A stretch of DNA of 64,000 nt from an uncultured delta proteobacterium (GTDB lineage: Bacteria > Desulfobacterota > Binatia > Binatales > Binataceae), in NCBI GenBank assembly GCA_963724765.1, contig CAVRVY010000004.1:160001-224000 (forward strand). The letters are read 5' to 3'. A program made the translations under genes and the position numbers. Shown here in pieces: positions 7,895 through 28,039 of this stretch (its first letter is position 1; each line of letters starts with the position of its first letter). Under the pieces are notes generated by a model. The model was not told where the DNA came from, did no database searches, and worked only from the letters and a program-made list of their open reading frames with translations.

Positions 7895-7895
7895 C

Positions 7896-12035: not shown

Positions 12036-12044
12036 CATTCTTCC

Positions 12045-12163: not shown

Positions 12164-12252
12164 AGATAAGAAGGATCTCGCGCGGCATCCTCTGCCTGTG
12201 GCTTGCTCTGTGGTTTTCTCGTCCACGGCACGAACGCTACAATCGTCCCACT

Positions 12253-13738: not shown

Positions 13739-13873
13739 CGTGGCAGAGAAATCATGACAGGAAGCCGGTAGGAGTTCATCTGCTCAAGCGCTCGTCGGAG
13801 CGCGCAGGCTCGCCGCCGCGTTCAGAATTTCGCGTTGAGTTTCTTTGACGGCGATTTAGATGCGCAGCGAAAT

Positions 13874-14350: not shown

Positions 14351-14545
14351 TCTGCTTCCCTCGTAATGGATTATCCCGGAGACATCAGGGAAGTCCCACG
14401 GTTCCCGGCTATGTTTATAGCACAGCAGCCGGTGAGCCCGAAGTGTTTCGCGTTGACCCGATATCTCGTGGGCCATTTTCGAAATTAGTTGCGCATGAGT
14501 CTGCGACATGAGCCTGGTTGACTGTCGGCGCGACTCGGGGCCCGT

Positions 14546-15817
14546 TCACTGCGTGTACAAATCCGTGGTGTTGAGTGACCCGAAGATGCCTCCACCGCCG
14601 GCAATGAGGACCTTGCCGTTGGGTAGCAGCGTGGCAGTTGCATCAAGGCGCTGATAATTCATGCTGGGAGTTAAAGAAGCCGGAAAAAAGCTGTTGGTTG
14701 CGGGATCGTAGATATCAACGATGCTCGTATCAATGCTCCCAGTTATTCCGCCTGCGATCAGCACATTGGCATTGTTCAGCAACGTGGCTGTGGCTTCCAC
14801 ACGAGCCTTGTTCATCAGCGGAGTCGAAGACGCCGGGGCGAAGGTATTGCTCGCTGGGTCATACAAATCCACGTCGTTAAGTATCGGGTTCAAGGTGCCC
14901 CCACTCAGACCCAGGCCGCCAGCGATGAGCACTTTGCCGTTGGCCAGCAAAGTCGCCGTGGCTTGTTCGCGCGCTTCGTTCATTAACGGGGTCGAGGTGG
15001 CGAAGCTATTGGTAGCTGGATCGTACAAGTCCACGCTATTGGTCGGGGACTCTGTGGCTAACGATTTGCCATCATCGCCGCCGGCAATCAGCACCTTGCC
15101 ATTCGGTAACAGTGTCGCTGTGGCGTCACCCCGCGCGTCGCTCATCGCAGGAAGTGACGCGGCGGCGGCGAAGCTGTTGGTCGCCGGATCGTACAACTCC
15201 ACGCTGTTTAGCTGTATCCCGGGAGGATAAGGAAGCGCCGCGAAGCCACCCCCCCTGCGATCAGCACCTTGCCGTTGGGCAACAATACGGCGGTGGCCTG
15301 AGTGCGCGCAGTGTTCATGACCGGAACTGACGCGGCTGTAGCAAAGCTGTTGGTCGCCGGGTCATACAACTCGATGCTGTTTAGCGGTCCTGGAACGCCC
15401 CCCCCCAAGGGCCTCACCGCCCGCTATCAGCACCTTGCCGTTCGGCAGCAACACGGCGGCGGCCTGATAGCGCGCCGTGTTCATCGTGGGAGTCGAAGCG
15501 GGCGGAGCAAAACTGTTGCTCGCGGAACCATACAACTCCACGCTGTCGAGATACGTTCCAAAAAAGGGAGAGAGCGAGGTGCGGCCAAAGCCGCCTGCGA
15601 TAAGCACGTTACCGTTGGGCAACAACGTGGCGGTGGCGCCTTGACGTTCCTGATTCATGGAGGGGGTGGTACCTAGCGCAGCAAAGCTGCCACCTGAGGC
15701 AGGCTGCGCCTGCGGCGAAGACCCTGCCGAAGGCGAGGCGGACGAACCGCCGCCACATCCGGCAAGCATCAGGATGACGCTGAAGATGAGACCGCACCAG
15801 CTGCGTCCACTGGTCAT
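14546..15817 (-). pseudogene. Kelch-repeat (7-blade beta-propeller) lipoprotein broken by two poly-G frameshifts
   Basis: Lipobox LAGC; seven ATxxLLxNGKVLIAGG...ELYDP repeats over three ORFs; frame changes at G9 (15398-15406) and G7 (15249-15255); G8 at both restores one 423-aa ORF. Confidence 0.85.
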
Positions 15818-15953
15818 GTTGTTCCTCTCTGAGATCTTCAAACCTTCGGGATTCGACCGCAGATGCTCGGGCGTCCGGACGCGCTGCGAGGCGGCGAGCG
15901 CGGCGCCAGCGCGCCATGCCGACAATGAAAGCAGCGCGCAGGTCGAATCGGCT

Positions 15954-15981
15954 AGCTGACATAATATTTCAAGCGCCTGTT
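15954..15981 (-). other. dif-like Xer site A
   Basis: + strand AGCTGACATAA-TATTTC-AAGCGCCTGTT; XerD arm 10/11 and spacer 6/6 identical to dif; XerC arm degenerate. Confidence 0.75.
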
Positions 15982-16057
15982 ACGAACTCTGCGTTCGCGC
16001 CACGCTTGCAATAGGAGTAAAGCCGGATGTGCGTGCTAGACGCGAAGGAGCCAAGCA

Positions 16058-16426
16058 ATGGCAGTTAAAGCGATAGGGGAATTTTCGTTCAAGGCCATCA
16101 CCAGCACCTACAGTCCCGGGCCGGCGGGAAGCGTTCTCGACCAAGTGAATTGGGAAGGGACGGCGGCGGGGTTCGGAACAGTCTTCGGCACGGCTACCTA
16201 CGTCGGTGGTTCCAAGAACGGGACCTTCAGTGCGTGTTGGGTCGCTTACCTGGACAACGGCGAGCAACTTTCGGGTATCGGTTCTGGCACCTATGAGAGC
16301 AGCGGCAAACACCACTGGCGCACGCAGCACGTAATTCACATATCCGACGGCACTAGTATCGTCAACGAAGGTGAGATCGACCTGGCCACTCGGTCGTGGA
16401 CGGGTAAAAATTTCGAGAATAGCTGA
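16058..16426 (+). CDS. Hypothetical beta-rich protein, sole gene between dif-like sites A and B
   Basis: 122-aa ORF with AAGGAG RBS. Confidence 0.75.
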   Translation: MAVKAIGEFSFKAITSTYSPGPAGSVLDQVNWEGTAAGFGTVFGTATYVGGSKNGTFSACWVAYLDNGEQLSGIGSGTYESSGKHHWRTQHVIHISDGTSIVNEGEIDLATRSWTGKNFENS

Positions 16427-16557
16427 ACGCGGGAGTCTCGCCTCCGCCGGCCCGGCGCGCATAAAGGAGGACTTTCGTCCAAAAATTCCTCTGCTGAAGG
16501 GTTGGTAAGCGCGGCGAGCCGGAATCGGTCGCCGCGCTTTTCATTCGCGGATAAGCA

Positions 16558-16585
16558 AGCAGACATAATATTTCTCACGCAACTG
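16558..16585 (-). other. dif-like Xer site B
   Basis: + strand AGCAGACATAA-TATTTC-TCACGCAACTG; same spacer as dif. Confidence 0.75.
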
Positions 16586-16587
16586 GA

Positions 16588-16615
16588 CCGAAGCGCTGGC
16601 GACGTTACGTCAACT
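16588..16615 (+). other. Inverted dif-like Xer site F
   Basis: CCGAAGCGCTG-GCGACG-TTACGTCAACT; XerD arm 10/11 to dif; lies 2 bp from site B. Confidence 0.65.
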
Positions 16616-17447
16616 ACGTTGGCGATTTTGTTGCAATCGACAGTCATTTCAAATAGGCTTGTCGAATGGCTCAGAATCTGGTCAGAGCGGCCAAGGCGAT
16701 AGCGCGAGCGACGGCGAGCCGAGTAGTAGTCCCGCTACTCGTCCACGGCGAGGTGCGCTGTGAGCCTCGCGAACCCGGATCTAGGAGAACTTGAAGTGAG
16801 GCCCTTTAACCTCCAGTACAAAGGCCCGCTTCATTCAATGCAATCGGATAAAGCTGATCGAAAAAAAGAAGTCCATGATATTCGGCGAGCGTTTCACGAC
16901 CAATTAAAGCGACCGTGGAAATCGACCGAATTGCTCCGCTTTAAGTCGCAACACGATTATCACGGGTTCCCTTATCGCGGACAGCGTTATCAATCCGGAG
17001 ATGGACGGTGGCTACCTCTTGATCTAGATTGGGCTGTTACAAAACGAACAAAAGCCGGGCGAGACATAAATTTCATTCCTTTAGTAATACGCGCTACAGG
17101 GATGGCCCTTACTTGTGAACTTGAAATGCGGATTGCCTGGCGCGAAAAGACTCAAGGTGGGATCGTTCGAGCGACCGCAGAAGGCTTCGATTTAGACAAT
17201 CGGCTTAAACACATTCTCGATGCATTGGCGATCCCACAAGACAATCAATTGCCTGACGACGTTGCGGCTGACCCGTCGCCATATTTTCTAACCTTGCTCG
17301 AAGACGACGGCTTGATAACTCGCATCGATGTAAAGGCACATCCGATTGGCTTGCCAAAGCAACCAACGGAGCTAGACGCTTATCTTGAGTGGAGTTGACC
17401 CGGTTTCGTGGACAGTGGCGGAGTGGGGAAAGTGAAGGAGAGCCACG

Positions 17448-17762
17448 ATGCCCAAGAGTCATGCACGGTATGCGCTGGAATACCGGCGCCGAATGGTGGA
17501 GCTGGCGCGGGCAGGGCGTAGTCCCGACGATCTCGCGAAGGAGTTCGAGCCGACCGCCCAGTCGATTCGCAACTGGGTGGCGCAGGCGGAGCGCGATGCG
17601 GGCCGTCGTCTTGATGGGCTGACCAGCGACGAGCGGCAGGAGCTTACCCGGCTGCGGCGTGAGAACCGGGTGCTGCGCGAAGAGCGCGAGATACTATCAA
17701 AAGCCGCGGCCTGGTTCGCGACGGAGACCGGTTCGGTGCCGTCACGGCGTTCGAATTCGTGA
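17448..17762 (+). CDS. IS3 transposase OrfA (HTH plus leucine zipper)
   Basis: YALEYRRRMVEL...SIRNWV...ELTRLRRENRVLREEREILSKAAAWF; AAAAG possible -1 slip site near 17699. Confidence 0.92.
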   Translation: MPKSHARYALEYRRRMVELARAGRSPDDLAKEFEPTAQSIRNWVAQAERDAGRRLDGLTSDERQELTRLRRENRVLREEREILSKAAAWFATETGSVPSRRSNS

Positions 17763-18643
17763 GCGCGAATCAGGCCATGTACCAGATTGCGACGATGTGC
17801 CGGGTGCTGGAGGTCTCCACCAGCGGATACTACGCGTGGTGCCAACGCTCGCCGTCCGCGCGCGCCCAGGCGGACGCGGAACTCACTTCACGGATGAACG
17901 CGATTCATGAGAGATCGTACGGGACCTACGGCGCACCGCGCATTCACGCCGAACTTGAGGCTGAAGGCATTCAAGTGGGGCGCAAGCGGGTGGCGCGGCT
18001 AATGCGCGCGGCAGGCTTGGCCGGCGTGAGCCGGCGCAAGTGGATAACCACCACGATGCGTGACCGCAATGCGCGTCCGGCGCCGGACCTGGTCGAGCGC
18101 AACTTCATGGCGCCAGGACCGAATCGGTTGTGGGTGGCTGACATCACCTATATCCCGACCTGGGCTGGTTTCCTGTATCTCGCGGTAGTGTTGGACGCCT
18201 TCAGCCGCCGGATCGTGGGCTGGGCGATGGCGACTCATCTGCGCACCGAGCTGGTGCTCGAAGCACTGAACATGGCGCTGGCGCAGCGGCGGCCCGCCGG
18301 GGTGATCCATCATTCCGACCAAGGCACACAGTACACGTCGATCGCCTTCGGGATACGTTGCCGGGAGGCCGGCGCGCGACCCTCGATGGGCTCGGTCGGT
18401 GATTGCTTCGACAATGCCATGTGCGAGAGCTTTTTCGCTACGCTCGAATGCGAGCTGCTCGACCGCCGCCGTTTCCACACCCAAGCCGAGGCGCGCATGG
18501 CGGTCTTCGAGTTCATCGAGGGCTGGTACAATCCCCATCGCCGCCACTCCGCCCTCGACTATCTGTCGCCAATCAACTACGAAAGGAGCCACGACCCAGA
18601 GGAGTCAACCGCAAGCCCTCCGCCGTCCACTGAACCGGGGTAA
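17759..18643 (+). CDS. IS3 transposase OrfB (DDE integrase core)
   Basis: WVADITY, HHSDQGTQY, DNAMCESFF motifs. Confidence 0.95.
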   Translation: MSANQAMYQIATMCRVLEVSTSGYYAWCQRSPSARAQADAELTSRMNAIHERSYGTYGAPRIHAELEAEGIQVGRKRVARLMRAAGLAGVSRRKWITTTMRDRNARPAPDLVERNFMAPGPNRLWVADITYIPTWAGFLYLAVVLDAFSRRIVGWAMATHLRTELVLEALNMALAQRRPAGVIHHSDQGTQYTSIAFGIRCREAGARPSMGSVGDCFDNAMCESFFATLECELLDRRRFHTQAEARMAVFEFIEGWYNPHRRHSALDYLSPINYERSHDPEESTASPPPSTEPG

Positions 18644-18764
18644 CTCCAGAGATCGACATTGATGTGACGGTCCAGAGCGATGCGCTCGATGATTTTTAAG
18701 CCTTTCTGAGACTCGTTGGCGCCTGTTGAGTCGCGCTTTAGTATGCTGCGCGGATGTTCGCGCC

Positions 18765-19217
18765 CTACTCCAATAAGTCCACCATTGAAGACCCTAATTG
18801 TTGGTGGATCTGCTCCCAACGTGCCGTCGCCGCAAGGAGTTTGTCGTGGGCCTTGTCGCGCTCTTTCTCAAGGTCTGTGATTTGCGTTTTCAATTCCCGC
18901 ACCGCGCTCTCGACTGATTGAACATTTTGGACGGCCGTATGGCGCGCTTGTGCTAGGCGCGCCAGTTCTGGCTCAAGTGAGGGTCTCACATTTGAAGTAG
19001 CAGTGTCACGATATTCTCGAAACTTCTGATAATTCAGTTCTGCTTTTTCTCGCAATTCGTTGACATATGGCAACGTGCCTTTCGTATTGTTCGCCTTTGT
19101 TCTTATGAGCATGAGCTGGTCGTCATATTTTTGGACGCGCTCGCTCGCTTGGATACGTTTGGCATTTTCCACTTCCAGAGCATGTTGAAGATTTTCTCTA
19201 ATGCCCACCTCGTTCAC
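18765..19217 (-). CDS. Coiled-coil passenger protein of IS1595 #1
   Basis: 150-aa heptad-rich ORF, coupled (GTGA overlap) to the upstream small ORF. Confidence 0.6.
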   Translation of the reverse strand: MNEVGIRENLQHALEVENAKRIQASERVQKYDDQLMLIRTKANNTKGTLPYVNELREKAELNYQKFREYRDTATSNVRPSLEPELARLAQARHTAVQNVQSVESAVRELKTQITDLEKERDKAHDKLLAATARWEQIHQQLGSSMVDLLE

Positions 19218-19381
19218 CTCTGCCCGATCCTTGTCTTTGGATCTGAATGAATTGCTTTTCCTAACAACTTGTCAAACTTTCCTAAGTCAATATGGCGGAT
19301 CTGCTCCCGCAGCTTGTCATCCTCTGCGCGCTGCTTTTCGCTGATCGGCTTGTGCTTTTGCCTACGCTTTTTTGTGGCCAC
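19214..19381 (-). CDS. Small basic protein downstream of transposase #1 (55 aa, not in ORF track)
   Basis: MATKKRRQKHKPISEKQRAEDDKLREQIRHIDLGKFDKLLGKAI…; homologous to 24699-24854; TAAAGT -10 box 6 nt before GTG. Confidence 0.72.
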   Translation of the reverse strand: MATKKRRQKHKPISEKQRAEDDKLREQIRHIDLGKFDKLLGKAIHSDPKTRIGQR

Positions 19382-19431
19382 GCTTGTACTTTAGCGCGGC
19401 CACGGAGCCTAGGCCATATGGTGCTTGCAAA

Positions 19432-20364
19432 CTATCCACTGCACGTTTCGACCATCGCAGCAAAGGCGTCTGCGCTGTGGCGATTGTTGTGGCGAAAGCT
19501 GAACTCATTTAGATACAGCGGCAGATAATCCTTGCTCACGTGGTGATAGGTGCCCACCACGCCACGCTTGAGCAATGCCCAGAACGATTCGATATTGTTT
19601 GTGTGAACCTCGCCGCGCACATATTCGCCGCGACCGTGATTCACAGCCTGATGCGGGATGCTTCTGTTCAGATAGCGATAGGCTTGATTTTCATCGGTCG
19701 CAACCAGTGAAACCTTGTCGCTCACAGTGCGATTAACGAAACCAGTCAGAGTTTGGGCGCCCATATCGCCAATGACCTTGGCGACGATGTTGCCCTTGCG
19801 CTCGATAGCGCCAATCACGCCGACTTTGCCGTAGCCGATGGCTTCGCCTAGAGGCTGTCGGCCTTTGGCCTTGCGTACCTGGGCGCTTTTCTTGCCGTAG
19901 TGGCGATTCCGATCCTTTCCACCGATGTAAGTTTCATCGACTTCGACTTGGCCAGTCAGCGAAAACGCATCGCCTTTCATCGCAGCACGCCAGCGATGGC
20001 AGATATACCAAGCTGTGCGCCAGTCTGTACCTGAATCCTCGCCAAACATAACGCGCCGAACCTGAAGCGAGCTAATGCCTTTCTTCGCGGTCAGCATCAT
20101 GTAGCCAATGCGAAACCAGATAACCAGTGAGACTTTGGTGTCTTGAAAAATCGTGGCTGTGGTGACGCTAAAGCGATAGCCCGCGCGCTTGCCGCAATCG
20201 GCGTTGCAGCAAGTCCAGCTAAAGGGTTTCTTTAACTTGTAGATTTTCTCCGCACGATTACAGCGAGGGCAGCGCACGCCGTTCGGCCAGCGCTTGGCGA
20301 CGATGTATTCTTTGCAGGCTTCATCGGTCGGAAACTGTTTCTCGAATAGCGCCAGTGTTTCCAT
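19432..20364 (-). CDS. IS1595-family transposase #1
   Basis: Zn ribbon (RWPNGVRCPRC), EVDETYIGG, VATDE, HTNNIESFW, YLNEFSFRHN. Confidence 0.95.
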   Translation of the reverse strand: METLALFEKQFPTDEACKEYIVAKRWPNGVRCPRCNRAEKIYKLKKPFSWTCCNADCGKRAGYRFSVTTATIFQDTKVSLVIWFRIGYMMLTAKKGISSLQVRRVMFGEDSGTDWRTAWYICHRWRAAMKGDAFSLTGQVEVDETYIGGKDRNRHYGKKSAQVRKAKGRQPLGEAIGYGKVGVIGAIERKGNIVAKVIGDMGAQTLTGFVNRTVSDKVSLVATDENQAYRYLNRSIPHQAVNHGRGEYVRGEVHTNNIESFWALLKRGVVGTYHHVSKDYLPLYLNEFSFRHNNRHSADAFAAMVETCSG

Positions 20365-20371
20365 GCTTCAG

Positions 20372-20400
20372 ATATTAGCGCTCTTTGCGTTGACTGTCAA
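20372..20400 (-). promoter_or_regulatory. sigma70-type promoter of transposase #1 (TTGACA-17-TAATAT), likely leaderless
   Basis: -35 box at TIR positions 17-22; -10 box ends 7 nt before ATG. Confidence 0.7.
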
Positions 20401-20420
20401 TACCAACAAAATAGCCACTA

Positions 20421-20449
20421 CGTAGACATAAATACTTGGAGTGCAAGTT
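20421..20449 (-). other. dif-like Xer site C (degenerate)
   Basis: + strand CGTAGACATAA-ATACTTG-GAGTGCAAGTT; XerC-side GTGCAA matches site D only with a 7-bp spacer. Confidence 0.55.
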
Positions 20450-20955
20450 CACCCTCTCAGGTCCGGAGTCGGCCTCGAAGCGGAAACCAGCAGGGAGATA
20501 AAGGCGATTACAGTTACACCAAGGATCCAAAGGGTCGCCAGCATGAATATGACCGCTTCCTCGCGGATGAGATAACCGGCAGCTGCCGCAAAGCTCGCGG
20601 CAGCGATTCCTAAGCCCATCACACTCGTAGTGGAAGAGCGAAGTATTTCAGTCCGATGTCGGGAGGTTTCGAGCACGAGACGACCGCCGCCGATGAGATG
20701 TATTAGACCAGACACTGCGTTGCAGATCTGCCATGCAATGTGCTCTTCGGATGCCAGATACACCAGCAGAAGCGCAGCGAAAAGGGACAGAAATAGAGCG
20801 CTCAGCGAGGAGTACATGAAATGAAACAGCGCCGAGGTTTGGCCCCTACCTAGACGGTGAGATCGCTCACCAAAAACAAAGACCACGCCGATGAATCCGG
20901 TCAGAGTCGCGGCCACTTGCGCGTAGGCGAGGAGAATAACCGCGTAACTACTCAT
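20449..20955 (-). CDS. Multi-pass membrane hypothetical protein, sole gene between dif-like sites C and D
   Basis: About 5 hydrophobic segments; stop codon abuts site C. Confidence 0.75.
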   Translation of the reverse strand: MSSYAVILLAYAQVAATLTGFIGVVFVFGERSHRLGRGQTSALFHFMYSSLSALFLSLFAALLLVYLASEEHIAWQICNAVSGLIHLIGGGRLVLETSRHRTEILRSSTTSVMGLGIAAASFAAAAGYLIREEAVIFMLATLWILGVTVIAFISLLVSASRPTPDLRG

Positions 20956-21000
20956 GTTGGGGTGCTAGGCTCTCTCGAAATCACGATAATTTTCGAGTCT

Positions 21001-21028
21001 GGTGAACATAATATTTCTCGTGCAACTG
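21001..21028 (-). other. dif-like Xer site D
   Basis: + strand GGTGAACATAA-TATTTC-TCGTGCAACTG; same spacer as dif; XerC arm 9/11 to site B. Confidence 0.75.
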
Positions 21029-21030
21029 CA

Positions 21031-21058
21031 AAGAAGCGGTCGCAAGATTATGTCAACT
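21031..21058 (+). other. Inverted dif-like Xer site E
   Basis: AAGAAGCGGTC-GCAAGA-TTATGTCAACT; XerD arm identical to dif; lies 2 bp from site D. Confidence 0.7.
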
Positions 21059-21084
21059 TGAATCAAGTGGCGATTATCCGGCGC

Positions 21085-21113
21085 TTGACACCGACCCAAT
21101 AAAGCGCTATTCT
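21085..21113 (+). promoter_or_regulatory. sigma70-type promoter of transposase #2 (TTGACA-17-TATTCT), likely leaderless
   Basis: -35 box at TIR positions 17-22; -10 box ends 7 nt before ATG 21121. Confidence 0.72.
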
Positions 21114-21120
21114 TTTCATC

Positions 21121-22101
21121 ATGAATACGAAGAGAAAGCCCGTTGTTCGGCAGATGCAATTGCGCGAGCTTCTGGCCCGTTTCTCGACTGAGGATGCTTG
21201 CAAAGAACACCTTGACCGAAGGCGCTGGCCGGATGGTGTGGTCAAGTGCCCGCGTTGCGGCGGCAAAGCATACCGGCTCAAGGCGCGCCCCTTCCACTAC
21301 CTGTGCAAGAGCGGCAAGCAATCGACCGATAAAGAGACCGGCGATGTCGTTACCTGCCACAAACAAAACGGCTATCGCTTCTCCGTCATCACGCGAACTG
21401 TGTTCGAGAATACGAACTACCCTCTTCGAGAATGGTTCCGGGTAATCTTCTTCATGCTGCACTCGAAGAAAGGAATGTCTGCCCATCAGATACACCGCAT
21501 GATCGGAACCGGCTCGTATGAAACCGCTTGGTATATGTGCATACGAATTCGCGCCGCAATGCGCGGCGATATGCTTTCGCTGAGCGGCATTGTAGAAGCG
21601 GACGAGACTTACATCGGCGGGAAGGATCGCAATCGACACTGGAACAAAAAGAGCCGTCAGCAACGTGAATTGGCTGGGCCACAACCGCTTGGCGAGGCCG
21701 TTGGATACGGGAAAAGCGGAGTCATCGGCGCAATCGCTCGCAAGGGTAACGTCGTCTGCCGCGTGATCGGCGATCAGGATGCTCGCACGCTTGCGGGTTT
21801 CGTTCGCAACGTCGTTGACGACAAGGTAACCCTCGTCGCGACGGACGAGAACCAAGCCTACAATTATTTGGACCGCGACATTCGCCATGAGGCGGTCAAG
21901 CACAGCGCTGGCGAATACGTGCGCGGCGAGGTCCATACGAACAACATCGAGAGTTTCTGGAGCCTTCTGAAGCGTGGCGTTGTGGGCACCTATCACAACG
22001 TGAGCAAGAAATATCTGCCGCTGTATCTGAATGAATTTTCCTTCCGATTCAACAATCGCGAGAACCCTGATATCTTCGACGCCATCCTTCGAGGATGCTG
22101 A
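21121..22101 (+). CDS. IS1595-family transposase #2
   Basis: RWPDGVVKCPRC, EADETYIGG, VATDE, HTNNIESFW, YLNEFSFRFNNR. Confidence 0.95.
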   Translation: MNTKRKPVVRQMQLRELLARFSTEDACKEHLDRRRWPDGVVKCPRCGGKAYRLKARPFHYLCKSGKQSTDKETGDVVTCHKQNGYRFSVITRTVFENTNYPLREWFRVIFFMLHSKKGMSAHQIHRMIGTGSYETAWYMCIRIRAAMRGDMLSLSGIVEADETYIGGKDRNRHWNKKSRQQRELAGPQPLGEAVGYGKSGVIGAIARKGNVVCRVIGDQDARTLAGFVRNVVDDKVTLVATDENQAYNYLDRDIRHEAVKHSAGEYVRGEVHTNNIESFWSLLKRGVVGTYHNVSKKYLPLYLNEFSFRFNNRENPDIFDAILRGC

Positions 22102-22177
22102 GTTCGCCACGCTGGCGGCGCCCTCAGCAACCGTCAAAGCCAGCGCAATTGCGGTTACCGTTTGCTGCGAGGGTGGG

Positions 22178-22453
22178 ATGGCACGGAAGAAAGCAAAACG
22201 ATCGGTTGGATCAGCTCGCGTTCCAATTTCCGATGAAAAATTGATCGCGCGCCTCCAAGAGAAAGCGCCGGAGCTATTGACTGCCAAGGTTTCGGAAGCG
22301 GCCTTTGATTCGGTCATAGACAATCTGCTTGCGGAATCGCCATCCGATGATCGTCCGCATTTCTATTGCCGCAAATGCGGGGAATATCACCTGAAAAGTC
22401 ATTTGCACTATCAACCTAGCGCCACTACGAAAACCACCCCAAAACAAGCTTGA
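22178..22453 (+). CDS. Small basic protein downstream of transposase #2, with C-terminal CxxC/His motif
   Basis: MARKKAKRS…AAFDSVIDNLL…YCRKCGEYHLKSH; GAGGG RBS before ATG 22178. Confidence 0.65.
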   Translation: MARKKAKRSVGSARVPISDEKLIARLQEKAPELLTAKVSEAAFDSVIDNLLAESPSDDRPHFYCRKCGEYHLKSHLHYQPSATTKTTPKQA

Positions 22454-23075
22454 GCGATCAAGAGAAGAAAGATTCCCCCGAACCCGCAGAGCGCGGAACG
22501 AAGGGGAGTCACCTGACGGGGCACTTCGAACTCGATCTCCCAAATCCCAACGAGGATACAACCGCAGGCGAAAGAATCAGAAATCCTTCAAGCGCCGCCT
22601 TTTTAACGACCTGCGAAACCCGCGCTTTTATATCGAAGGATTCGCTCTCATCGTTGTTGCCATCTATACCGGCTTCGCTGGATATCAATCGTGTCAGTTG
22701 GAACGCTCTACCATTGCGACCAAAGAAAGCGCTGATGCTGCGGTTGCGGCGACGCGTGCCTTGATCTTTCTCGAAGAGAAACCATTTTTCGGCAGTTATG
22801 GACCTGTATGCACTATGGGCTTGCAAAATGTCGGCAAGATTCCCGCTACTCAGATAATCGAAACGCACGAATTCAAGATCACCGCCAACGATAATGCCGT
22901 TCCGAGTTTTTCCCGATGTCCTGAAGGGAAGAAACTCCGCTTCCCGTATATCAGGCCTGATCATCCGAGAATCTTCGCAATCGCTCCACCGGTCGGAGCT
23001 TCCCAGACTCCGCCCACAGTCTGGATTCACGGCTGTATTCGCTATCGCGACTTCTTGAGCGCGCGTCTAGTTTAG
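22450..23075 (+). pseudogene. Membrane-anchored passenger protein, probably frameshifted
   Basis: The frame of the 22698-23075 ORF stays open upstream through a TM segment (FALIVVAIYTGFAGYQ) but has no start; the likely TTG start at 22450 is in another frame. Confidence 0.45.
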
Positions 23076-23240
23076 ACCCACGATCTGGTCGGTGTCGAGT
23101 ATCGGATAATCGCCCCTCAAGTGGGGACTAGGTGAATGTTGACACCCACTGAAAGTTGGCATAAAAAGAGTCGAGGACGGCTATGCAGGGAGGTTCTGCG
23201 GGCGGGGTTCCCGCCCGGTTACAAGGGCCGCGAGTGGTTT

Positions 23241-23979
23241 ATGATTCTCCACGCTTACTTTGACGAACACGGGCACGATGGATCGTCCGTATACGCCATC
23301 GCTGGTTACGTCGGGACCGATGAGCAATGGAGCACGTTCACTGAAAAGTGGAGCTCTACCCTAGAGCGTCATTATGCATTCGGCCCGTTCCACATGGTCG
23401 AGTTCGAGGCTTCAGACATAGACAAAAAGAGCCAGTTCCACGGCTGGAGCAAGGATCAAAAGGACGCGCTGGCGAAAGAGCTTTTTCCGCTCATCCCTGA
23501 CAGCGGTGTGCGCGGATTAGGCCAAGCGATACTGATGGACGCCTTTAATGGCCTTTCGGAGAATGCACAGCAACGGTTACGCGATCCTTATTGGGGTCTG
23601 CTTCCACAACTGTATCGAACGACTACTGAAGGACATTCCAGAGGACGACAAGGTTGATTTGGTTTTTGATCGCAAAGACAAATACACTGGCGAAGCGCTG
23701 GATCGCTATAGATTTCTCAAGGATGACTGGCTGCCGCCTGCACAGGCGAAAAAGCTAGTGGGTTGTGCATTCAGAGACGACGATATCATTATTCCGCTAC
23801 AAGCAGCGGACGTTCTCGTTTATGAAACCGGCAAATTATTTGAGAACGCCTTTCGTAGGCCAGATTTATCGGAGAGAAAGTCACTGCAAGTTCTCCGTGC
23901 GCGACAAAACGTACAAATCGGAGTCTGGGACAGGGATAATCTTGCCGCAGAGTTTAAAAAATACAACTCCCTACTCTAG
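23241..23979 (+). pseudogene. DUF3800-like protein with a +1 frameshift at a G4 run (23593-23596)
   Basis: AYFDEHG N-terminal and PLQAADVLVY C-terminal motifs in different frames; removing one G joins DPYW|VCFHNC; start may lie further upstream. Confidence 0.7.
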
Positions 23980-24179
23980 CCACTGCTGGTAAGACACGCC
24001 CAAAAAATAGCGGCGACCACCGCGACGGCGCCTAAAACCAGCGGAATCGCACAGCCGATAAGGCCGAGCGCATCGCCCACTCCCATCGGGCCGGGATGGC
24101 TTTGGCCGCAATGTGGGCAGACCTTCGCTTTCTCTGAAACAGGCGCGTGGCAGGTTTTGCAGTTGACCAGAGCGGCCAC
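23976..24179 (-). CDS. Small zinc-ribbon plus TM passenger protein
   Basis: CKTC...CPHCG followed by a hydrophobic helix. Confidence 0.65.
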   Translation of the reverse strand: MAALVNCKTCHAPVSEKAKVCPHCGQSHPGPMGVGDALGLIGCAIPLVLGAVAVVAAIFWACLTSSG

Positions 24180-24185
24180 GAACGT

Positions 24186-24674
24186 TCAACGGCCGAAGCG
24201 GCATACATTAGAAATCAGGCGCTGAGAGATGTCCTCGCACGACGTGTAGGTTGAGCCATCATCACAATCAAATCGTAGTTCATCGTTCTCAGCGACCTTG
24301 ATAGCGAGATATCTGGCATCAACGCGCCTATAAGACGCGAGGGGACCGTACAGCCGAGATTCGACAATACTGATGTATCGCCCAGCATTGCTGAATTCTA
24401 CTTCAATTTTTACATAAGGCAGTCGAGCGGTTGCGGTTAATACAAACTTCGTATCGCTGAGCTCTAGAAATGCGCAATGGCATTCTGGGTTCGCCTTAAG
24501 TTCTCGGCGAAGCTTTTCTGAATCGATAGAGATTCGATGCTTCAACGAATCCCAAAAAAGCGGCGCCTTGGCGGCAATAATAGCGGCGTTGTGTAGGCGC
24601 AGCCTGTCTCGAATGATCGCCCGTTCGTCTTGCTCGCGTTGCTGGCTCTTTAGTGTCTCTATCCAGTCGCTCAT
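24186..24674 (-). CDS. Hypothetical passenger protein of IS1595 #3
   Basis: Open frame co-oriented with transposase operon; no recognised motif. Confidence 0.55.
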   Translation of the reverse strand: MSDWIETLKSQQREQDERAIIRDRLRLHNAAIIAAKAPLFWDSLKHRISIDSEKLRRELKANPECHCAFLELSDTKFVLTATARLPYVKIEVEFSNAGRYISIVESRLYGPLASYRRVDARYLAIKVAENDELRFDCDDGSTYTSCEDISQRLISNVCRFGR

Positions 24675-24698
24675 AGTTCCATCCGCCACCACGTCTTT

Positions 24699-24854
24699 TC
24701 ATTTAGCCCCTTCCCGAGAACGGAAAAGTGGCTTGATGGCCCGCTTGAATTTCTCAGGGTCGGCGTACGCGAGTTCCTGTCTTAGGCGCTCGTCTTCGGC
24801 GCGCGTTTTCTCTTTCAACCTGCTTGGCTGCTTCGATTTGGTCTTGCGAGGCAC
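24699..24854 (-). CDS. Small basic protein downstream of transposase #3 (51 aa, not in ORF track)
   Basis: MPRKTKSKQPSRLKEKTRAEDERLRQELAYADPEKFKRAIKPLF…; shares EKxRAEDxxLR……DxxKF with 19214-19381; TATGCT -10 box 6 nt before GTG. Confidence 0.72.
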   Translation of the reverse strand: MPRKTKSKQPSRLKEKTRAEDERLRQELAYADPEKFKRAIKPLFRSREGAK

Positions 24855-24886
24855 GCTGAAAGCATAGCGCTTTCAAATCGCGCCGG

Positions 24887-25825
24887 CTACTGAGCGCACG
24901 TCGTAATCAAGTCGGCAAACATGTTCTCGTTCTTTCGATTGTTAAAGCGATAGCTGAATTCGTTCAAATAGAAGGGCAGATACTTCTTGCTGACGTTATG
25001 GTAGTTGCCGACGATTCCGCGCTTCAGCAACGCCCAGAACGATTCGATTGAGTTTGTGTGAACGTTGCCGCGCACGTATTCGCCGCGCGCGTGGCTCACG
25101 GCCTGATGCGGCATGCCTGCGCGAACAAACTTATAAGCTGGATTCTCGTCAGTCGCGACGAGCGTAACTTTCTCGTCTGTGGCGCGGCGCACGAATGAAC
25201 CGAGAGTAGGAGCATCCATCGAGCCGATAACGCGGGCCACGACGTTGCCCTTGCGCTCGATAGCCCCGATCACGCCGACCTTCCCGAATCCAACGGCCTC
25301 GCCAAGCCGTTGCGCGCCCTTGGCCTTGCGTACCTGGGCGCTCTTTTTGTTCTTGTGACGATTGCGGTCTTTCCCGCCGATATAAGTCTCGTCAACCTCG
25401 ACTTCGCCGCTCAGTGGACGGTACATATCGCCAGCCATCGCAGCGCGCCAGCGCATGCACATGAACCAGCTTGTGTGATAGTCGTGCGTGGAATTCTCGC
25501 CAAACATCACGCGATGAATCTGAAGCGCACTCATGCCTTTCTTTGAAGTCAGCATCAGATAGCCGACCTTAAACCAAAGATCGAGCGGCTTCTTTGTATT
25601 CTCGAAGATCGTTCCGCTGATGACCGAGAACCGAAAGCCCTGACGCTTGCCGCAATCCTCGTTCTTGCAGACCCAATGAAAGGGCCGCGCCTTGAGCGCG
25701 TAGACCTTTTCCTTGCGATCGCAGCGGGGGCAGCGCACGCCGTCCGGCCAGCGCATTTGAACCAGAAAGCGACGGCATTGCTCGTCGGTTCCAAACTCTC
25801 TATCGAAGTCGCCGATGGTCTGCAT
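24887..25825 (-). CDS. IS1595-family transposase #3
   Basis: RWPDGVRCPRC, EVDETYIGG, VATDE, HTNSIESFW, YLNEFSYRFNNR; start placed at ATG 25825. Confidence 0.95.
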   Translation of the reverse strand: MQTIGDFDREFGTDEQCRRFLVQMRWPDGVRCPRCDRKEKVYALKARPFHWVCKNEDCGKRQGFRFSVISGTIFENTKKPLDLWFKVGYLMLTSKKGMSALQIHRVMFGENSTHDYHTSWFMCMRWRAAMAGDMYRPLSGEVEVDETYIGGKDRNRHKNKKSAQVRKAKGAQRLGEAVGFGKVGVIGAIERKGNVVARVIGSMDAPTLGSFVRRATDEKVTLVATDENPAYKFVRAGMPHQAVSHARGEYVRGNVHTNSIESFWALLKRGIVGNYHNVSKKYLPFYLNEFSYRFNNRKNENMFADLITTCAQ

Positions 25826-25831
25826 GCTCAA

Positions 25832-25860
25832 AGAATAGCGCTAAACGAGACGAGTGTCAA
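25832..25860 (-). promoter_or_regulatory. sigma70-type promoter of transposase #3 (TTGACA-17-TATTCT), likely leaderless
   Basis: -35 box at TIR positions 17-22; -10 box ends 6 nt before ATG. Confidence 0.72.
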
Positions 25861-25881
25861 CATTCACCTAGTCCCCCCTCA

Positions 25882-25909
25882 AGTTGACATAATATTTCTT
25901 ATGCGAAGC
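25882..25909 (-). other. dif: Chromosomal dif site (XerC/XerD recombination site)
   Basis: GCTTCGCATAA-GAAATA-TTATGTCAACT versus E. coli GGTGCGCATAA-TGTATA-TTATGTTAAAT (9/11 in each arm); intergenic; KOPS-like motifs converge on it. Confidence 0.9.
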
Positions 25910-26058
25910 CGTACTAATGCAAACCAAAATAAACCGCAGTTAGGCTGGGTGTCAATGCCGCGGCCGCCGACAGACTCCTTCCGGATGCGCTCGTCCGATG
26001 TGCGTCGGTGCGACCTGCTGGCGCGCGCGCTCGCGCGTCTCTATGATTGGGAGCCGTT

Positions 26059-27117
26059 ATGACTTCAAAGCTTCAATTGCGATCGATCATCGTTGCTTTC
26101 GCCGCGCTGCTGGCGCTCACACCTTATGGCAGTGCGGCGCGGGCCGCCTCGGCGAGCGACACTCATGCCAGCTCCAGCGACGGCGCTTCCCAGAGCGTGC
26201 AGGTGCAGATCTTTCTCCAGCGTCATTTCCGCCTGCCCAGCGCCGCCGACGTCGATGTTGGTCCGCCGCAAGCTTCATCGATTCCCGGATTTTCCGTCAG
26301 GATCGTCAAGCTGCATAACGACGCCGGTCAGTCGGCCACCTTCGTCCTGTACACCGACGCCGCCGGCAAGACCGCGATTTTGAGCGACGTCGAAGTCGGC
26401 GCGGCCTCGCCCGGCCCGGCGCACGGCCTGTGGAGCCGCCCACTGCGCCCGGCCAACGAGCCGCCAGGCGCCCCGGCCAAGTCGGTATTGATCACTGACT
26501 CACCCGGCAAAGCGATCGTTGGCACCGAAATGGATTTGACCAAGGATCCATGGGGACGTGTCAACCTTGAGAAGCTGCATCTCGACGACCGCGCCACGCT
26601 TGGGCCCGACGACGCGCCGGTGACGATCCTCGAGTTCGGCGATCTCGAATGCCCCTTCTGCGCGCGCGCCTTCAGTGAGATCGAGACCGTGGTAAACACG
26701 ACCTACAAGGGCAAGGTGCGGCTCATCTTCAAGCACTTTCCCCTGAACATCCATCCGTGGGCGATGCAGGCCGCGATCGCGGCCGAGTGCGTGCGCCGCC
26801 AGAATCCCAAGGCCTTCTGGTCCTTCGTCGGCGACGTCTATCGCGACCAGGGCGCGATCAACCCGCAGAATTTGCGCCAGCACGTCAGCACTTACGTCGA
26901 GAAGCTCGGATTGGATCAGCAGGTGCTCAATGCCTGCATCATGGCGCCGGCGGCCGAAGCCCAGGTTACGCAGGACCGCGACGACGGCACCGCAATCGCG
27001 ATCAATTCCACGCCGACCTTTCTGGTCAACGGAATCGAGTTGGTAGGGTTGCCCTCGGACAAGACCTTCGATTACGTGGTCAACTCCGAAGTGAAGCAGC
27101 ATCAGGCGAGCAAATAG
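26059..27117 (+). CDS. DsbA-family thioredoxin-fold protein, exported
   Basis: Signal peptide; EFGDLECPFC, FKHFPL, STPTFLVNG. Confidence 0.9.
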   Translation: MTSKLQLRSIIVAFAALLALTPYGSAARAASASDTHASSSDGASQSVQVQIFLQRHFRLPSAADVDVGPPQASSIPGFSVRIVKLHNDAGQSATFVLYTDAAGKTAILSDVEVGAASPGPAHGLWSRPLRPANEPPGAPAKSVLITDSPGKAIVGTEMDLTKDPWGRVNLEKLHLDDRATLGPDDAPVTILEFGDLECPFCARAFSEIETVVNTTYKGKVRLIFKHFPLNIHPWAMQAAIAAECVRRQNPKAFWSFVGDVYRDQGAINPQNLRQHVSTYVEKLGLDQQVLNACIMAPAAEAQVTQDRDDGTAIAINSTPTFLVNGIELVGLPSDKTFDYVVNSEVKQHQASK

Positions 27118-27165
27118 CAGCTTGAGTCACAAACCCATTGCAGGCTCAGCATGCAACAAGCCGAA

Positions 27166-27197
27166 GTCCCTCGACTCGCGGGCTCGCTCAGGATGAC
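27166..27197. repeat. REP-like half repeat (GTCCCTCGACTCG...GCTCAGGATGAC)
   Basis: Matches the right arm of the 12045-12163 repeat. Confidence 0.7.
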
Positions 27198-27211
27198 AGG
27201 CAGGAGTAAAC

Positions 27212-27245
27212 CGGCAGAGGGTCGCTCGCGAGCGGCCCTCTGCCG
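27212..27245. terminator. GC-rich hairpin between convergent genes, probable terminator
   Basis: CGGCAGAGGGTCGCT-CGCG-AGCGGCCCTCTGCCG. Confidence 0.65.
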
Positions 27246-27253
27246 AAAGCTCT

Positions 27254-27988
27254 CTAGTGTTTCGCCGGTGCGCTTGCCGGCTTGATGATCTTGACTAATG
27301 GCGGCGAAGGCACGGCCGCAGGCGCAACCCCGAGTTGGGCCAGCGTTTCCATCACGACCGTGCGCTCGGGAGCGTACGGATGCTGCGCCAGGAAATCGCG
27401 GTAGACCGCGATCGCTTCGGCGCGTTTGCCCTGCTTTTGCAGCATCCGCGCCACCCCCATCTCTGCCCTCGCCTGCTCAGGCCCTTCGATCTGTGAGGCC
27501 TGGCGATACGCGTCTTCCGCCTGCTTGTAGTCACCCAGTTCTTCGTAAGTTACCGCAAGGTCGTCGAGCGCCGCGCCGCGGAAGACCGAGGCATCGTCCT
27601 GGGACAGGTAACGCAGTAGCGTGTCGCGCGCCTTGGCGGGCTCTTTTTGCGCCAGGTAAGCGGTGGCCAGGTAAAGGTTTGCCAGCCGTCCGACCGCACG
27701 ATGCGGTTCGGCGGCGGCGAGGCTCGATAGTTCCTTCTCCGCAGTTTCGTACTTGCCACCCTGGAGCTCGCTCAGCGCCTGATCGAAGCGTGCGGAGGCG
27801 GCGCGTCCGCGCCGGACCTGGTAGTAGTAAAGGCCGAGCGCGATTGCGACGATCACGATCAGCGCGGCAGCACCGAGCAGGACCTCGGTCATGTGGAGCT
27901 CGAAGAAGAGCGCGGCGGTTTCAAAGATACTTTGAAACTCGTCGGGCTGCTTGAGCTCTTTGCGGCTTATCTTGTGGCGGGTCGCCAA
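27254..27988 (-). CDS. Membrane-anchored TPR protein (YfgM-like)
   Basis: RKELKQPDEF N-terminus, one TM helix, TPR helices. Confidence 0.78.
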   Translation of the reverse strand: MATRHKISRKELKQPDEFQSIFETAALFFELHMTEVLLGAAALIVIVAIALGLYYYQVRRGRAASARFDQALSELQGGKYETAEKELSSLAAAEPHRAVGRLANLYLATAYLAQKEPAKARDTLLRYLSQDDASVFRGAALDDLAVTYEELGDYKQAEDAYRQASQIEGPEQARAEMGVARMLQKQGKRAEAIAVYRDFLAQHPYAPERTVVMETLAQLGVAPAAVPSPPLVKIIKPASAPAKH

Positions 27989-28039
27989 TTGAGTCTGCGG
28001 ACGCGCCCGGTGCGGGGCGCGAGAGTCGTCGCAGCCAAG

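Follow-up and report, generated by a model that had tools for sequence, protein, structure and literature searches.

Single-gene dif-mimic modules beside the chromosomal dif of a Candidatus Binataceae bacterium are probably shuffled by host Xer recombinases at a spot also targeted by IS1595-family transposons

The window analysed in this study is a 64,000-nt stretch of contig C4, which carries the dif island of G000, the genome of a soil bacterium belonging to Candidatus Binataceae; every genome compared is metagenome-assembled. The features identified at the locus are listed in Table 1. The site at the right end of the island is the chromosome dimer-resolution site (dif), as the first-pass annotation had proposed: it is the only full dif match in G000, and along contig C4 the cumulative GC skew peaks at 180 kb (approximately 20 kb in the window), in the dif region. 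Its half-sites were set against the dif sequences of E. coli, B. subtilis and Frankia printed in PMC3025954. One dif match each was found in 16 of the 17 genus genomes (0 for the reversed-pattern control), and a looser dif pattern was matched in 69 of the 81 family genomes.

On the XerC side, the DsbA-like gene lies within 0.4 kb of dif in 15 of the 16 genus loci and is the first gene of a 41.5-kb segment that runs past the window to C4:227395. On the side of the XerD arm lies a low-G+C zone of accretion. The kelch-repeat gene had been taken as the left boundary of this zone, but the GT4, cupin and kelch genes are themselves variable: among the genus dif loci, GT4 is present only in G001, and the cupin and kelch genes only in G009. 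The conserved backbone of the relatives stops near position 12590 of the window (in blastn of the genus dif loci against G000, nine loci end at C4:172545-172592). No dif-like sites with three or fewer mismatches were detected in 12000-15950.

Table 1. Features of the dif island and its flanks (positions in the window)
Feature	Position	Strand	Description
GT4 glycosyltransferase	12575-13738	-	Pfam; left part of variable zone (12575-15925)
ChrR-type cupin	13874-14509	-	Pfam; variable zone
Kelch-repeat gene	14546-15925	-	Pfam; split into ORFs in this assembly
Site A	15954-15981	+	XerD-type arm AGCTGACATAA, spacer TATTTC, class-1 non-dif half-site AAGCGCCTGTT
cas1 module	15982-16557	+	Conserved leader 15982-16057, 122-aa gene 16058-16426, hairpin, conserved right end
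Site B	16558-16585	+	28-mer; left half of double site B.F (16558-16615)
Site F	16588-16615	inverted	Back to back with B, 2 nt between XerC-side halves
IS1595a (IS#1)	16621-20416	-	3.8-kb IS1595-family transposon; transposase 19432-20364 (-)
IS1595a passenger ORFs	16760-17398, 18765-19217 (-), 19214-19381 (-)		First ORF interrupted by IS3
IS3-family element	17387-18648	+	orfA 17448-17762, orfB 17759-18643; Pfam HTH_Tnp_1, rve
Site C	20421-20448	+	XerD-type arm CGTAGACATAA, deviant spacer, class-3-like half-site
C-D cargo gene	20449-20955	-	168-aa protein, no known family
Site D	21001-21028	+	28-mer; left half of double site D.E (21001-21058)
Site E	21031-21058	inverted	Back to back with D
IS#2	21069-23114	+	IS1595-family; transposase 21121-22101; flanks AATCAAGT / CCTCAAGT
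IS#3	23123-25876	-	IS1595-family transposon; transposase 24887-25831 (-)
IS#3 passengers	23136-23979, 24186-24692 (-)		First frameshifted
dif	25882-25909	+	XerD arm AGTTGACATAA, spacer TATTTC, XerC arm TTATGCGAAGC
DsbA-like thioredoxin-fold gene	26047-27117	+	Pfam Thioredoxin_4, DSBA; conserved XerC-arm-side neighbour

All seven dif or dif-like sites were found where the first-pass annotation had placed them, the upstream six on the XerD-arm side of dif. The common orientation, core and spacer reported for A, B, D and dif correspond to an exact 12-mer, ACATAATATTTC, which comprises the inner XerD arm and the spacer and lies on the plus strand in all four. E and F are both inverted and form back-to-back double sites with D and B, respectively. 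The 58-bp layout seen in B.F also occurs in G016, G013 and G015, with a looser version in G014, and E duplicates exactly 15 bp of the XerD arm of dif and its outer flank. With two or fewer mismatches, the 12-mer has six matches in the window against 0.70 expected, a number reached in none of 100 shuffles; its exact form occurs 10 times in the 5.4 Mb of G000 searched, including four times in the 10-kb island (0.011 expected from the remaining genome). The XerD-arm-like sequence GTTGACATAA (one or no mismatch) occurs seven times in the island against 0.16 expected, and two of these matches, at 19059 and 23155, had escaped the earlier list of sites.

On the other half of the sites, the GC described at XerC-side positions 5-6 is present in A, B, D, E, F and dif, and in C only when the spacer is taken as 7 bp, which makes its half-site GAGTGCAAGT. 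In the mimics, the XerC arm is replaced by a different conserved half-site with the consensus RAGYGCC. Among 43 distinct secondary sites from the relatives, G3 is found in 42 (versus A at this position in dif), G5 in 33, C6 in 36 and C7 in 30; the secondary half-sites are conserved, not decayed. In G013 and G014, the spacers of secondary sites and dif disagree (TATTTC versus TGTTTC).

Of the proposed cassettes of approximately 0.6 kb with one gene each, only A-B (604 bp) and C-D (585 bp) fit this description; F-C and E-dif contain nothing but IS1595-family transposons. In the A-B module, the 122-aa gene (labelled cas1) is followed by a terminator-like hairpin (about 16507-16539, then TTTTC; -26.7 kcal/mol, z -3.46) and a conserved right end (...GCGGATAAGCA), and the module ends are conserved among paralogues. 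The left junction of the module is site A. AlphaFold modelled the cas1 protein as an eight-strand beta barrel (mean pLDDT 93.7), the closest solved folds being DUF3237 proteins (TM 0.61-0.69, E about 0.01). The 168-aa C-D product is read from its sequence as a membrane protein. Neither protein matched Pfam, PHROGs or PADLOC entries; in addition, PHROGs and PADLOC gave nothing for the 13 non-transposase ORFs of the island (13/13), Rfam gave no match in 12000-28000, and no cas1 carriers were found among plasmids, phages and viral contigs.

The cassette genes do not represent a diverse pool here: the 122-aa gene recurs five times in G000, and its family is present in 21 of the 61 relatives. Outside the genus, most homologues of the two genes are not flanked by sites that can be recognised. 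Only 2 of the 52 cas1 loci across the family have exact flanking repeats of at least 13 bp, and the sole homologue of the 168-aa gene (54% identical; found in one of the 60 other family genomes) has no dif-like site nearby. The class-1 half-site and a leader of ~130 nt precede three unrelated cargo genes, namely cas1, a gene for a 100-aa secreted protein in G003 and one for a 194-aa secreted protein in G005.

The order of features given by the first-pass annotation was correct overall, except that its IS#1 is IS1595a, a transposon with passenger ORFs and an IS3-family element nested in one of them. This IS3 is missing in other samples, in which run X2 and X4 contigs join 17386 to 18649 (1262 bp skipped). 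The IRs of IS1595a begin with GGCGATTTTGTTGC and GGCTATTTTGTTGG, its flanking repeat is ACTACGTT/ACTACGTA, and it sits 5 bp outside the XerD-type arm of F. Its transposase matched Pfam DDE_Tnp_IS1595 (6e-41) and a Zn ribbon, and all three IS1595-type transposases matched PF12762 (4e-38 to 6e-41) and PF12760. The elements thus have the ISXO2-like DDE domain, N-terminal zinc ribbon, terminal IRs and 8-bp duplication of the IS1595 family. The duplication is perfect for IS#3 (CCTCAAGT at 23115-23122 and 25877-25884, the right-hand copy overlapping the first 3 nt of dif), 7/8 for IS1595a and 6/8 for IS#2, and perfect duplications were found in five genus genomes. IS1595-family ends abut XerD arms in 11 of the 16 genus genomes; in 3 of the 20 genomes from other genera, the IS lies on the XerC side. 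The intact G005 homologue of the frameshifted IS#3 passenger showed a weak DUF3800 match (E 0.0013), below the cut-off of Pfam.

Comparison of the dif locus among relatives bore out the prediction of variable content: modules vary on the XerD side, with breakpoints exactly at the 12-mer. In 17 kb on the XerD side of each of 13 genus genomes, we found 27 extra sites (two or fewer mismatches) against about 3.4 expected from the genome-wide rate of G000; 25 of the 27 keep the orientation of dif, and 9 of the 13 genomes have at least one. One metagenome contig contains 10 sites in a single orientation within 6.6 kb. Outside the genus, such sites are rare (3 in 20 genomes x 10 kb). A second copy of the cassette, on contig C3, matches at ~95% identity, with homology ending at the last base of the 12-mer. 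Contigs L170 and L168 share 99.3% identity in the cassette and 100% to its right, versus 51.5% to the left of the left 12-mer; the remaining cassette pairs, L168/L169 being left out as one locus (both flanks 100% alike), show 69-84% identity inside versus 42-60% outside. In G015, the cas1 module directly abuts the true dif, in the order cassette, 17-mer and XerC arm, whereas G005 has cassette, 17-mer, 3889 bp, 17-mer and XerC arm; the extra 3.9 kb lies exactly between the 12-mer and the XerC arm of dif. Furthermore, a 1349-bp module segment is 99.6% identical in the species G013 and G014, dif-adjacent in both, which argues for transfer. No circular or excised module form was found among assembled contigs.

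As to the enzyme, none of the 19 island and flanking ORFs matched a tyrosine or serine recombinase in Pfam, and G000 encodes a XerD-like protein at C2:373047-373922 (316 bits) and a XerC-like protein at C3:1107052-1107933 (306 bits), each of which scores best with the model of the other's partner and slightly below the curated cut-offs. The earlier statement that the island encodes no integrase stands for site-specific recombinases; the island does encode four DDE transposases.

Taken as a whole, the locus is best explained by dif-mimic modules that are moved by site-specific recombination, most likely by host XerC/XerD, together with IS1595-family insertions, an explanation we consider probable; the Xer-built cassette array of the first-pass annotation is partly supported. 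Self-contained modules (leader, one gene and terminator) lie between 28-bp mimics that keep the inner XerD arm and central region of dif with the XerC arm swapped. Conservative site-specific recombination within the 12-mer would insert and stack these modules, exchange them and delete them. XerC/XerD would act on a module mimic and on dif or a resident mimic, as in IMEX elements and the dif modules of Acinetobacter, presumably through a circular intermediate, and the poor XerC-side half-site may stop the excision of integrated modules. From sequence we infer both that Xer is the recombining enzyme and the order in which the modules were acquired. Inverted mimics, namely E, F and the whole second array, which lies inverted 42 kb away in G000, could be partners for inversion, which fits the finding that the 41.5-kb segment between the two arrays is inverted in 3 of the 14 genus genomes with a typable flank. 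IS#1 to IS#3 are explained by ordinary DDE transposition of IS1595-family elements, which generates 8-bp duplications and always hits the same position, 5 bp beyond Xer-binding arms. In short, the host's Xer recombinases probably rearrange the modules at dif, and transposons target the same spot.

Several observations sit uneasily with the Xer reading. In the XerC-side half-sites of secondary sites, the inner TTAT typical of a Xer arm is missing, which makes XerC binding to them doubtful, and a protein other than XerC could read them. Modules ending in AGCAG were never found directly against the XerC arm of dif, which counts against Xer because simple insertion at dif would give such ends first. 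The same holds for the scarcity of flanking repeats at cas1 loci and of extra sites beyond the genus, the site-free homologue of the 168-aa gene, the spacer mismatch in G013 and G014, and the negative results for circular or excised forms and for cas1 carriers. An alternative is that a dedicated recombinase encoded elsewhere reads the RAGYGCC half-site and uses dif as a landing pad only. The half-site consensus, unlike the XerC arm of dif at its inner positions, at least seven further tyrosine-recombinase homologues in G000, and the occurrence of arrays largely within this genus despite a family-wide dif all agree with this alternative. We nevertheless regard it as unlikely: the modules bring no recombinase gene with them and none lies within any island examined, the identity common to the sites is exactly the inner XerD arm and central region of dif, and modules directly abut the true dif in G015.

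It is less plausible still that the array is immobile, having arisen when the dif region and a resident gene family were duplicated locally, decayed and were rearranged by homologous recombination. The multiple copies of cas1, the lack of recognisable sites at most copies outside the genus and the clear decay of some sites would be expected from such a history. However, cas1 paralogues within one array are only 62-71% identical in protein and would therefore recombine poorly by homology, the left flanks of near-identical cassettes are unrelated from exactly the 12-mer on, one end and leader are common to unrelated cargo genes, and the consensus of the secondary half-sites is maintained. Cas1 cassettes with at least 92% protein identity occur between unrelated neighbours, in five left and four right contexts, with junctions at the 12-mer.

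Equally little probability attaches to the dif-like sites being by-products of the IS1595-family transposons, as captured target or surrogate ends, with the island as a pile-up at a preferred target. The frequent abutment of IS ends on XerD arms, the XerD-arm-like GTTGACA in the IRs, the location of E and F directly beside IS ends and the near-palindromic E-dif and F-C pairs left after IS removal speak for this origin, but cas1 and other small modules lack IS ends and 8-bp duplications, arrays without IS between their sites exist (the second array of G000; 12392-13653 of G005), and the IS duplications span only 3 nt of the arm. Finally, an assembly artefact of a long-read metagenome bin is hardly credible despite homopolymer errors (an extra C at 15248 in contigs from other samples, a base missing at 23593 in one contig) and the 5.16% contamination of G000, because contigs from other studies (X4 records 18 and 19) span A, cas1, B and F and show 0-3 differences there, and the same architecture recurs in at least nine other genomes and four metagenome contigs.

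Mobile modules and targeting transposons both have counterparts in known systems. The IS1202-family dif hunters (ISAjo2 group) are described in PMC10132070 as DDE ISs located 5 bp from a Xer-binding arm of dif/pdif, with a TnsB-like transposase of 441-457 aa, a 5-bp duplication, ends TGT..ACA and a position on the XerC side. The elements found here are instead ISXO2-like DDE with a zinc ribbon (310-326 aa), generate an 8-bp duplication, often carry passenger genes and lie mostly on the XerD side; membership in the IS1202 family is ruled out by Pfam domains, size and duplication length, and the agreement is one of behaviour only. The likeness to integrons noted in the first-pass annotation holds for the layout: an ordered one-directional array of mostly single-gene units at a fixed recombination site, with content varying between relatives. 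No intI or attI is present (no intI/Phage_integrase-type match in Pfam among the ORFs of 12575-27117), and integron cassettes are promoterless according to PMC5027507, whereas the modules here have their own leader and terminator-like hairpin, and their sites are 28-bp dif mimics.

The pdif modules of Acinetobacter, as described in PMC6449649, are small, often single-ORF units with 28-bp XerC/XerD-type sites and no recombinase of their own that occur in varied contexts; chromosomal ones lie far from dif1, and the authors state that such modules are not commonly found outside Acinetobacter. IS elements hunt dif/pdif sites in that genus as well (PMC10132070). Our modules likewise occur in different sequence contexts. 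However, the flanking sites in Acinetobacter are inverted, whereas the cas1 and C-D modules lie between direct repeats, inverted flanks being limited to F..C, E..dif and the 7489-9259 unit of G013 (the G013/G014 module); moreover, the sites here follow one another right beside the chromosomal dif, and the phylum is an unrelated, uncultured one. The array is also IMEX-like in its integration at dif with a full dif at the array end, the absence of its own integrase, the presence of host Xer genes and the exact 12-mer at both module ends. The known IMEXs, which are phages, satellites or large islands, range from 4.7 to 57 kb, unlike the units here, which measure 0.3-0.7 kb, contain just one gene and encode nothing for replication or transfer. 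IMEXs such as CTX-phi, VGJ-phi, TLC-phi and the gonococcal genetic island (GGI), among which Legionella LME-1 is also counted, are presented in PMC5357621 as integrase-less, stackable elements integrated at dif that bring a dif mimic and re-form dif. In the mimics of TLC-phi and GGI, the same source describes a conserved XerC arm and centre with a divergent XerD arm; the polarity found here is the reverse, in that the mimics retain the XerD side and centre of dif and have a different conserved half-site in place of the XerC side.

The seven dif and dif-like sites claimed by the first-pass annotation are all present where it placed them. The 12-mer ACATAATATTTC, which consists of the inner XerD arm and spacer of dif, is found exactly four times here, and its six matches with up to two mismatches were reached in 0 of 100 shuffles; the site array is real and far above chance. 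The source genome (G000; 5.4 Mb in four contigs, 62% G+C) contains ten exact copies, namely these four, four on the opposite strand just past the window's end, and single copies on contigs C2 and C3. On contig C4 (window, C4:160001-224000), the cumulative GC skew has its maximum at 180 kb, or ~20 kb in the window, and the G+C content at 16-26 kb is 52-57%, versus 62-69% in the left backbone (1-13 kb) and 62-64% to the right.

A 25-mer of dif has exactly one match in 16 of 17 genus genomes (a reversed control has none), and a looser dif pattern matches 69 of 81 family genomes, a tally including five unpublished genomes that were used nowhere else. A DsbA-like gene lies ≤0.4 kb from dif on the XerC side in 15 of 16 genus loci. 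Half-site matches were counted by hand on the dif sequences printed in the available part of PMC3025954, with the XerC and XerD sides as given in the available part of PMC5357621. The right half of dif, on the other strand, agrees with the right (XerD/RipX) halves of Escherichia coli, Bacillus subtilis and Frankia at 9, 10 and 10 of 11 positions, and the left half agrees with the E. coli XerC half at 9 of 11. Because it is the sole full site, occurs once in nearly all genus genomes, matches these half-sites and has the DsbA-like neighbour, the last site of the array is the chromosomal dif. XerC-like and XerD-like genes are encoded elsewhere in the genome.

Positions of the array components and related loci (window coordinates unless a contig, C2-C4, or an extracted locus, L, is named)
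Feature	Position	Content	Basis
12-mer, exact	15959, 16563, 21006, 25887	all + strand
A-B unit		in order: ~100-nt leader; 122-aa gene; terminator-like hairpin; conserved right end
IS1595a (IS#1)	16621-20416	passenger ORFs; IS3 nested at 17387-18648	Pfam, ends
IS#2	21069-23114	IS1595 family	Pfam, ends
IS#3	23123-25876	passengers; perfect duplication CCTCAAGT, right copy at 25877-25884	Pfam, ends
XerD-arm-like AGTTGGCATAA	23155-23165	32 nt inside left end of IS#3
Chromosomal dif	25882-25909	only place in G000 with both full arms
41.5-kb segment	C4:186002-227395	begins (window 26002) with dsbA-like gene
Second array	C4:227300-230300 (L001 3300-6300)	3-6 kb past window; seven dif-like sites, all opposite strand
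12-mers past window	C4:228010-230235	four, opposite strand
Lone class-1 junction	C2:291729 (L002 5730)	close to cluster of IS1595 copies
Truncated cas1 copy	C3:832431-832960 (L003 5432-5960)	5'-truncated; then ~50-nt unit ending in another XerD-like arm
~110-nt conserved sequence	L048 7500-7610, 9321-9430; L042 11149-11260	after inverted XerD arm
1349-bp stretch	L048 7748-9096 (G013); L043 14935-16283 (G014)	cupin-like gene
2.35-kb element	L052 raw 11329-13745 (G015)	RES-domain ORF

When the IS1595-family elements are subtracted, the array consists of site A, the module of the 122-aa gene (labelled cas1), site B and the inverted site F, which stands against site C, followed by the 168-aa gene, site D, the inverted site E, 8 nt and dif. 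B.F and D.E are pairs of 28-bp sites placed back to back, 2 nt apart, a layout also present in relatives G016, G013 and G015 and, in looser form, in G014. Such double sites flank units with inverted flanks, resembling in this respect the dif modules of Acinetobacter, and also serve as IS targets. Folding of the double sites as a CTX-like attP hairpin was rejected in its full form, because the spacers and inner halves are unpaired and only the two XerD arms pair (over 12 bp in G016, G013 and G015); a single-strand hairpin reminiscent of the folded attP of CTX is a possibility.

Among 43 distinct secondary sites, AGYWG is shared at the outer XerD side and RAGYGCC at the other side, and 42 have G3, where dif itself has A, which shows that they are a maintained kind of site of their own and not decayed dif. 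An Rfam search of 12000-28000 gave no matches. The dif spacer of G013 is TGTTTC and that of its secondary sites TATTTC, with the reverse situation in G014 (loci L048 and L043), suggesting movement of arrays or modules across lineages that differ in the dif spacer.

The terminator-like hairpin of the A-B unit has a folding energy of -26.7 kcal/mol (z -3.46); a promoter/terminator consensus scan gave no gain over shuffles. No family was assigned to the cas1 protein by Pfam, PHROGs or PADLOC, and the latter two gave no matches on 13 ORFs. Its predicted fold is an eight-strand barrel (mean pLDDT 93.7), to which the closest solved folds are, weakly, DUF3237 proteins (best E 0.013). None of 337 metagenome homologues is named, and the relatives with homologues are MAGs of Candidatus Binataceae, Candidatus Binatus or 'uncultured delta proteobacterium'. 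The source genome has five cas1 copies, three of them in the second array with an identical end type. The class-1 half-site, which replaces the XerC arm at site A, and the leader are also found upstream of two unrelated secreted-protein genes (G003 and G005), and signal peptides are present on three of the cargoes seen. Other half-site classes accompany other small genes, such as an 88-aa gene in G003, G001 and G005. A lone class-1 junction lies on C2, the ~50-nt unit behind the truncated C3 copy of cas1 also follows the G016 cassette, and a ~110-nt conserved sequence follows the inverted XerD arm of three units (table).

The C3 cassette copy is ~95% identical as far as the 12-mer's final base; past that point the sequence is unrelated, and the copy's left end is cut elsewhere. 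In two metagenome contigs, the cassette is 99.3% and the right flank 100% identical, versus 51.5% (chance level) for the left flank from the 12-mer. Cassettes with at least 92% protein identity have five distinct left and four distinct right neighbours. G015 and G005 have the left flank and first cassette in common (81% over 1.27 kb), after which G015 continues into the XerC arm of dif and G005 into 3889 bp and then the same XerC arm; these 3889 bp comprise two modules and an IS, bounded by identical 17-mers. On the XerD side of dif, 13 genus genomes contain 27 extra sites versus ~3.4 expected, 25 of them in the orientation of dif, and 9 of the 13 have at least one; ten same-orientation sites occupy a 6.6-kb stretch of one metagenome contig. 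The 1349-bp stretch common to the two species G013 and G014, 99.6% identical and in both located in a dif-adjacent unit with inverted XerD arms, points to recent transfer. The sole XerC-side insertion seen in the genus is the 2.35-kb RES element of G015, located between the XerC arm of dif and the dsbA-like gene and ending in an inverted double site.

Dif-like sites flank cas1 copies in the second array and in genus relatives, and are mostly missing from cas1 homologues outside the genus. Family-wide, only 2 of 52 cas1 loci have exact flanking repeats, and loose motifs detected the conserved left end at 8 and the terminator hairpin at 18; as a family, cas1 is therefore not generally organised in modules. 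The 168-aa gene has a homologue in one of 60 other family genomes, with no flanking sites. In 20 genomes from other genera, the surroundings of dif hold three extra sites on the XerD side and zero on the XerC side, and no carrier replicon of cas1 was found among plasmids, phages and viral contigs. Twenty public runs were listed and the contigs of four compared with the window. Among them is the form without the nested IS3, and site A, cas1 and the double site B.F are covered; no circular or excised module was found in them, rare forms being invisible in contigs, and other joints, with sides of only 20-28 nt, were not relied on. In other samples' contigs, the C-run at 15248 (kelch gene) is one C longer, and at 23593 (DUF3800-like passenger) a base is missing from one contig; homopolymer errors or strain differences may account for the ORF breaks at these positions.

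On one side of the second array a 41.5-kb conserved segment ends, and on its opposite side lies the other backbone flank; the array itself contains small unnamed units and three paralogues of cas1. To the left of dif, three kinds of flank are found: the G000-type backbone (10 genomes including G000), the reverse of C4:230527-241131, which flanks the second array (G016, G005 and G015), and another sequence (G007); G010 and G011 could not be typed, their loci being too short. At the far end of the segment, the reversed G000-type left backbone follows in G016 and G005, and the other flank in G001 and G014; the far end in G016 holds a window-type cassette (92% nucleotide identity), inverted. The segment is inverted against both flanks in G016, G005 and G015, and these swapped flanks indicate that it flipped between species together with dif at its dsbA end. 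Arrays lie at both ends of the segment, directed towards it, which is exactly the flipped, two-array arrangement expected if dif recombined with an inverted mimic. Because the junction sequences at the far end differ between genomes, a single common site there was rejected, and the inversion breakpoints cannot firmly be placed at sites.

In 11 of 16 genus genomes (read by eye), the end of an IS1595-type inverted repeat lies 5-6 nt ahead of the AGTTGACATAA of dif. A partner repeat and a perfect 8-bp duplication (form NNNNWAGT) were identified in five genomes (G016, G001, G013, G002 and G000). Stacking of elements is evident in three of these five, where an older IS end directly adjoins on the left. 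IS1595a has the identical 5-bp geometry relative to F on the opposite strand, and its nested IS3 is missing from contigs of two other samples. In the 20 genomes of other genera, a motif flagged five, and inspection by eye found an XerD-side end in eight and an XerC-side end, 5 nt past the arm, in three. The target preference is not absolute, because related copies elsewhere in the source genome lie away from such sites, among them a C3 copy that duplicated TCGTCAAG. The whole IS group carries GTTGACA, resembling the XerD arm, in its inverted repeats, and IS#3 holds a further XerD-arm-like sequence (table). As a precedent, members of the unrelated IS1202 family sit 5 bp away on the XerC side (PMC10132070, available part); the IS1595 elements here are mostly on the XerD side, and both groups lie 5 bp off the arm. 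Our literature search found no published link between IS1595 and dif. These insertions represent a second IS family, unrelated to IS1202, homing to dif, and suggest that transposons have repeatedly used the Xer-dif complex, or the sequence beside it, as a safe harbour.

The first-pass annotation had proposed that host Xer recombinases gathered the modules at dif. Such gathering, with Xer as the probable enzyme, accounts best for A-B, C-D and their relatives, once corrected for the transposons and the inverted sites. A protein other than Xer could read the secondary half-sites, which is conceivable because these half-sites are without the inner Xer motif. In the Xer-based reading, each cassette would be expression-ready, with the shared leader, one small gene and a terminator, and would bring a specialised half-dif composed of the XerD side, the centre and a dedicated non-dif half-site. 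Cassettes would be captured at dif and then stacked; recombination of dif with an inverted mimic would flip the 41.5-kb terminus segment and shift dif to its other end, leaving the old array parked, so that two opposed arrays result; and the IS1595 group would have evolved to home in beside the Xer-dif complex. That the genus runs an integrase-less cassette system on housekeeping Xer with all of these parts, the half-dif, the dif-flipping inversion and the dif-homing IS1595, is a tentative proposal, which we regard as possible but on balance not probable.

The known elements that exploit Xer are mainly phages, satellites and large islands of a few pathogens. Here, in an uncultured soil/peat phylum, modules of less than 1 kb, each with a single gene, are stacked in order at the chromosomal dif itself, and the module half-site is unlike either dif arm. 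If the process is Xer-driven, the dimer-resolution machinery can act as a general cassette capture system without a dedicated integrase, Xer substrates may retain the XerD side and centre and not the XerC side, and dif is able to relocate by inversion. No comparable system was found described for this phylum in the literature searched, and dif modules are held to be peculiar to Acinetobacter plasmids in the available part of PMC6449649. Compared with both IMEX elements and dif modules, the array differs in the size of its units, in the polarity of its sites and in its place at the chromosomal dif.
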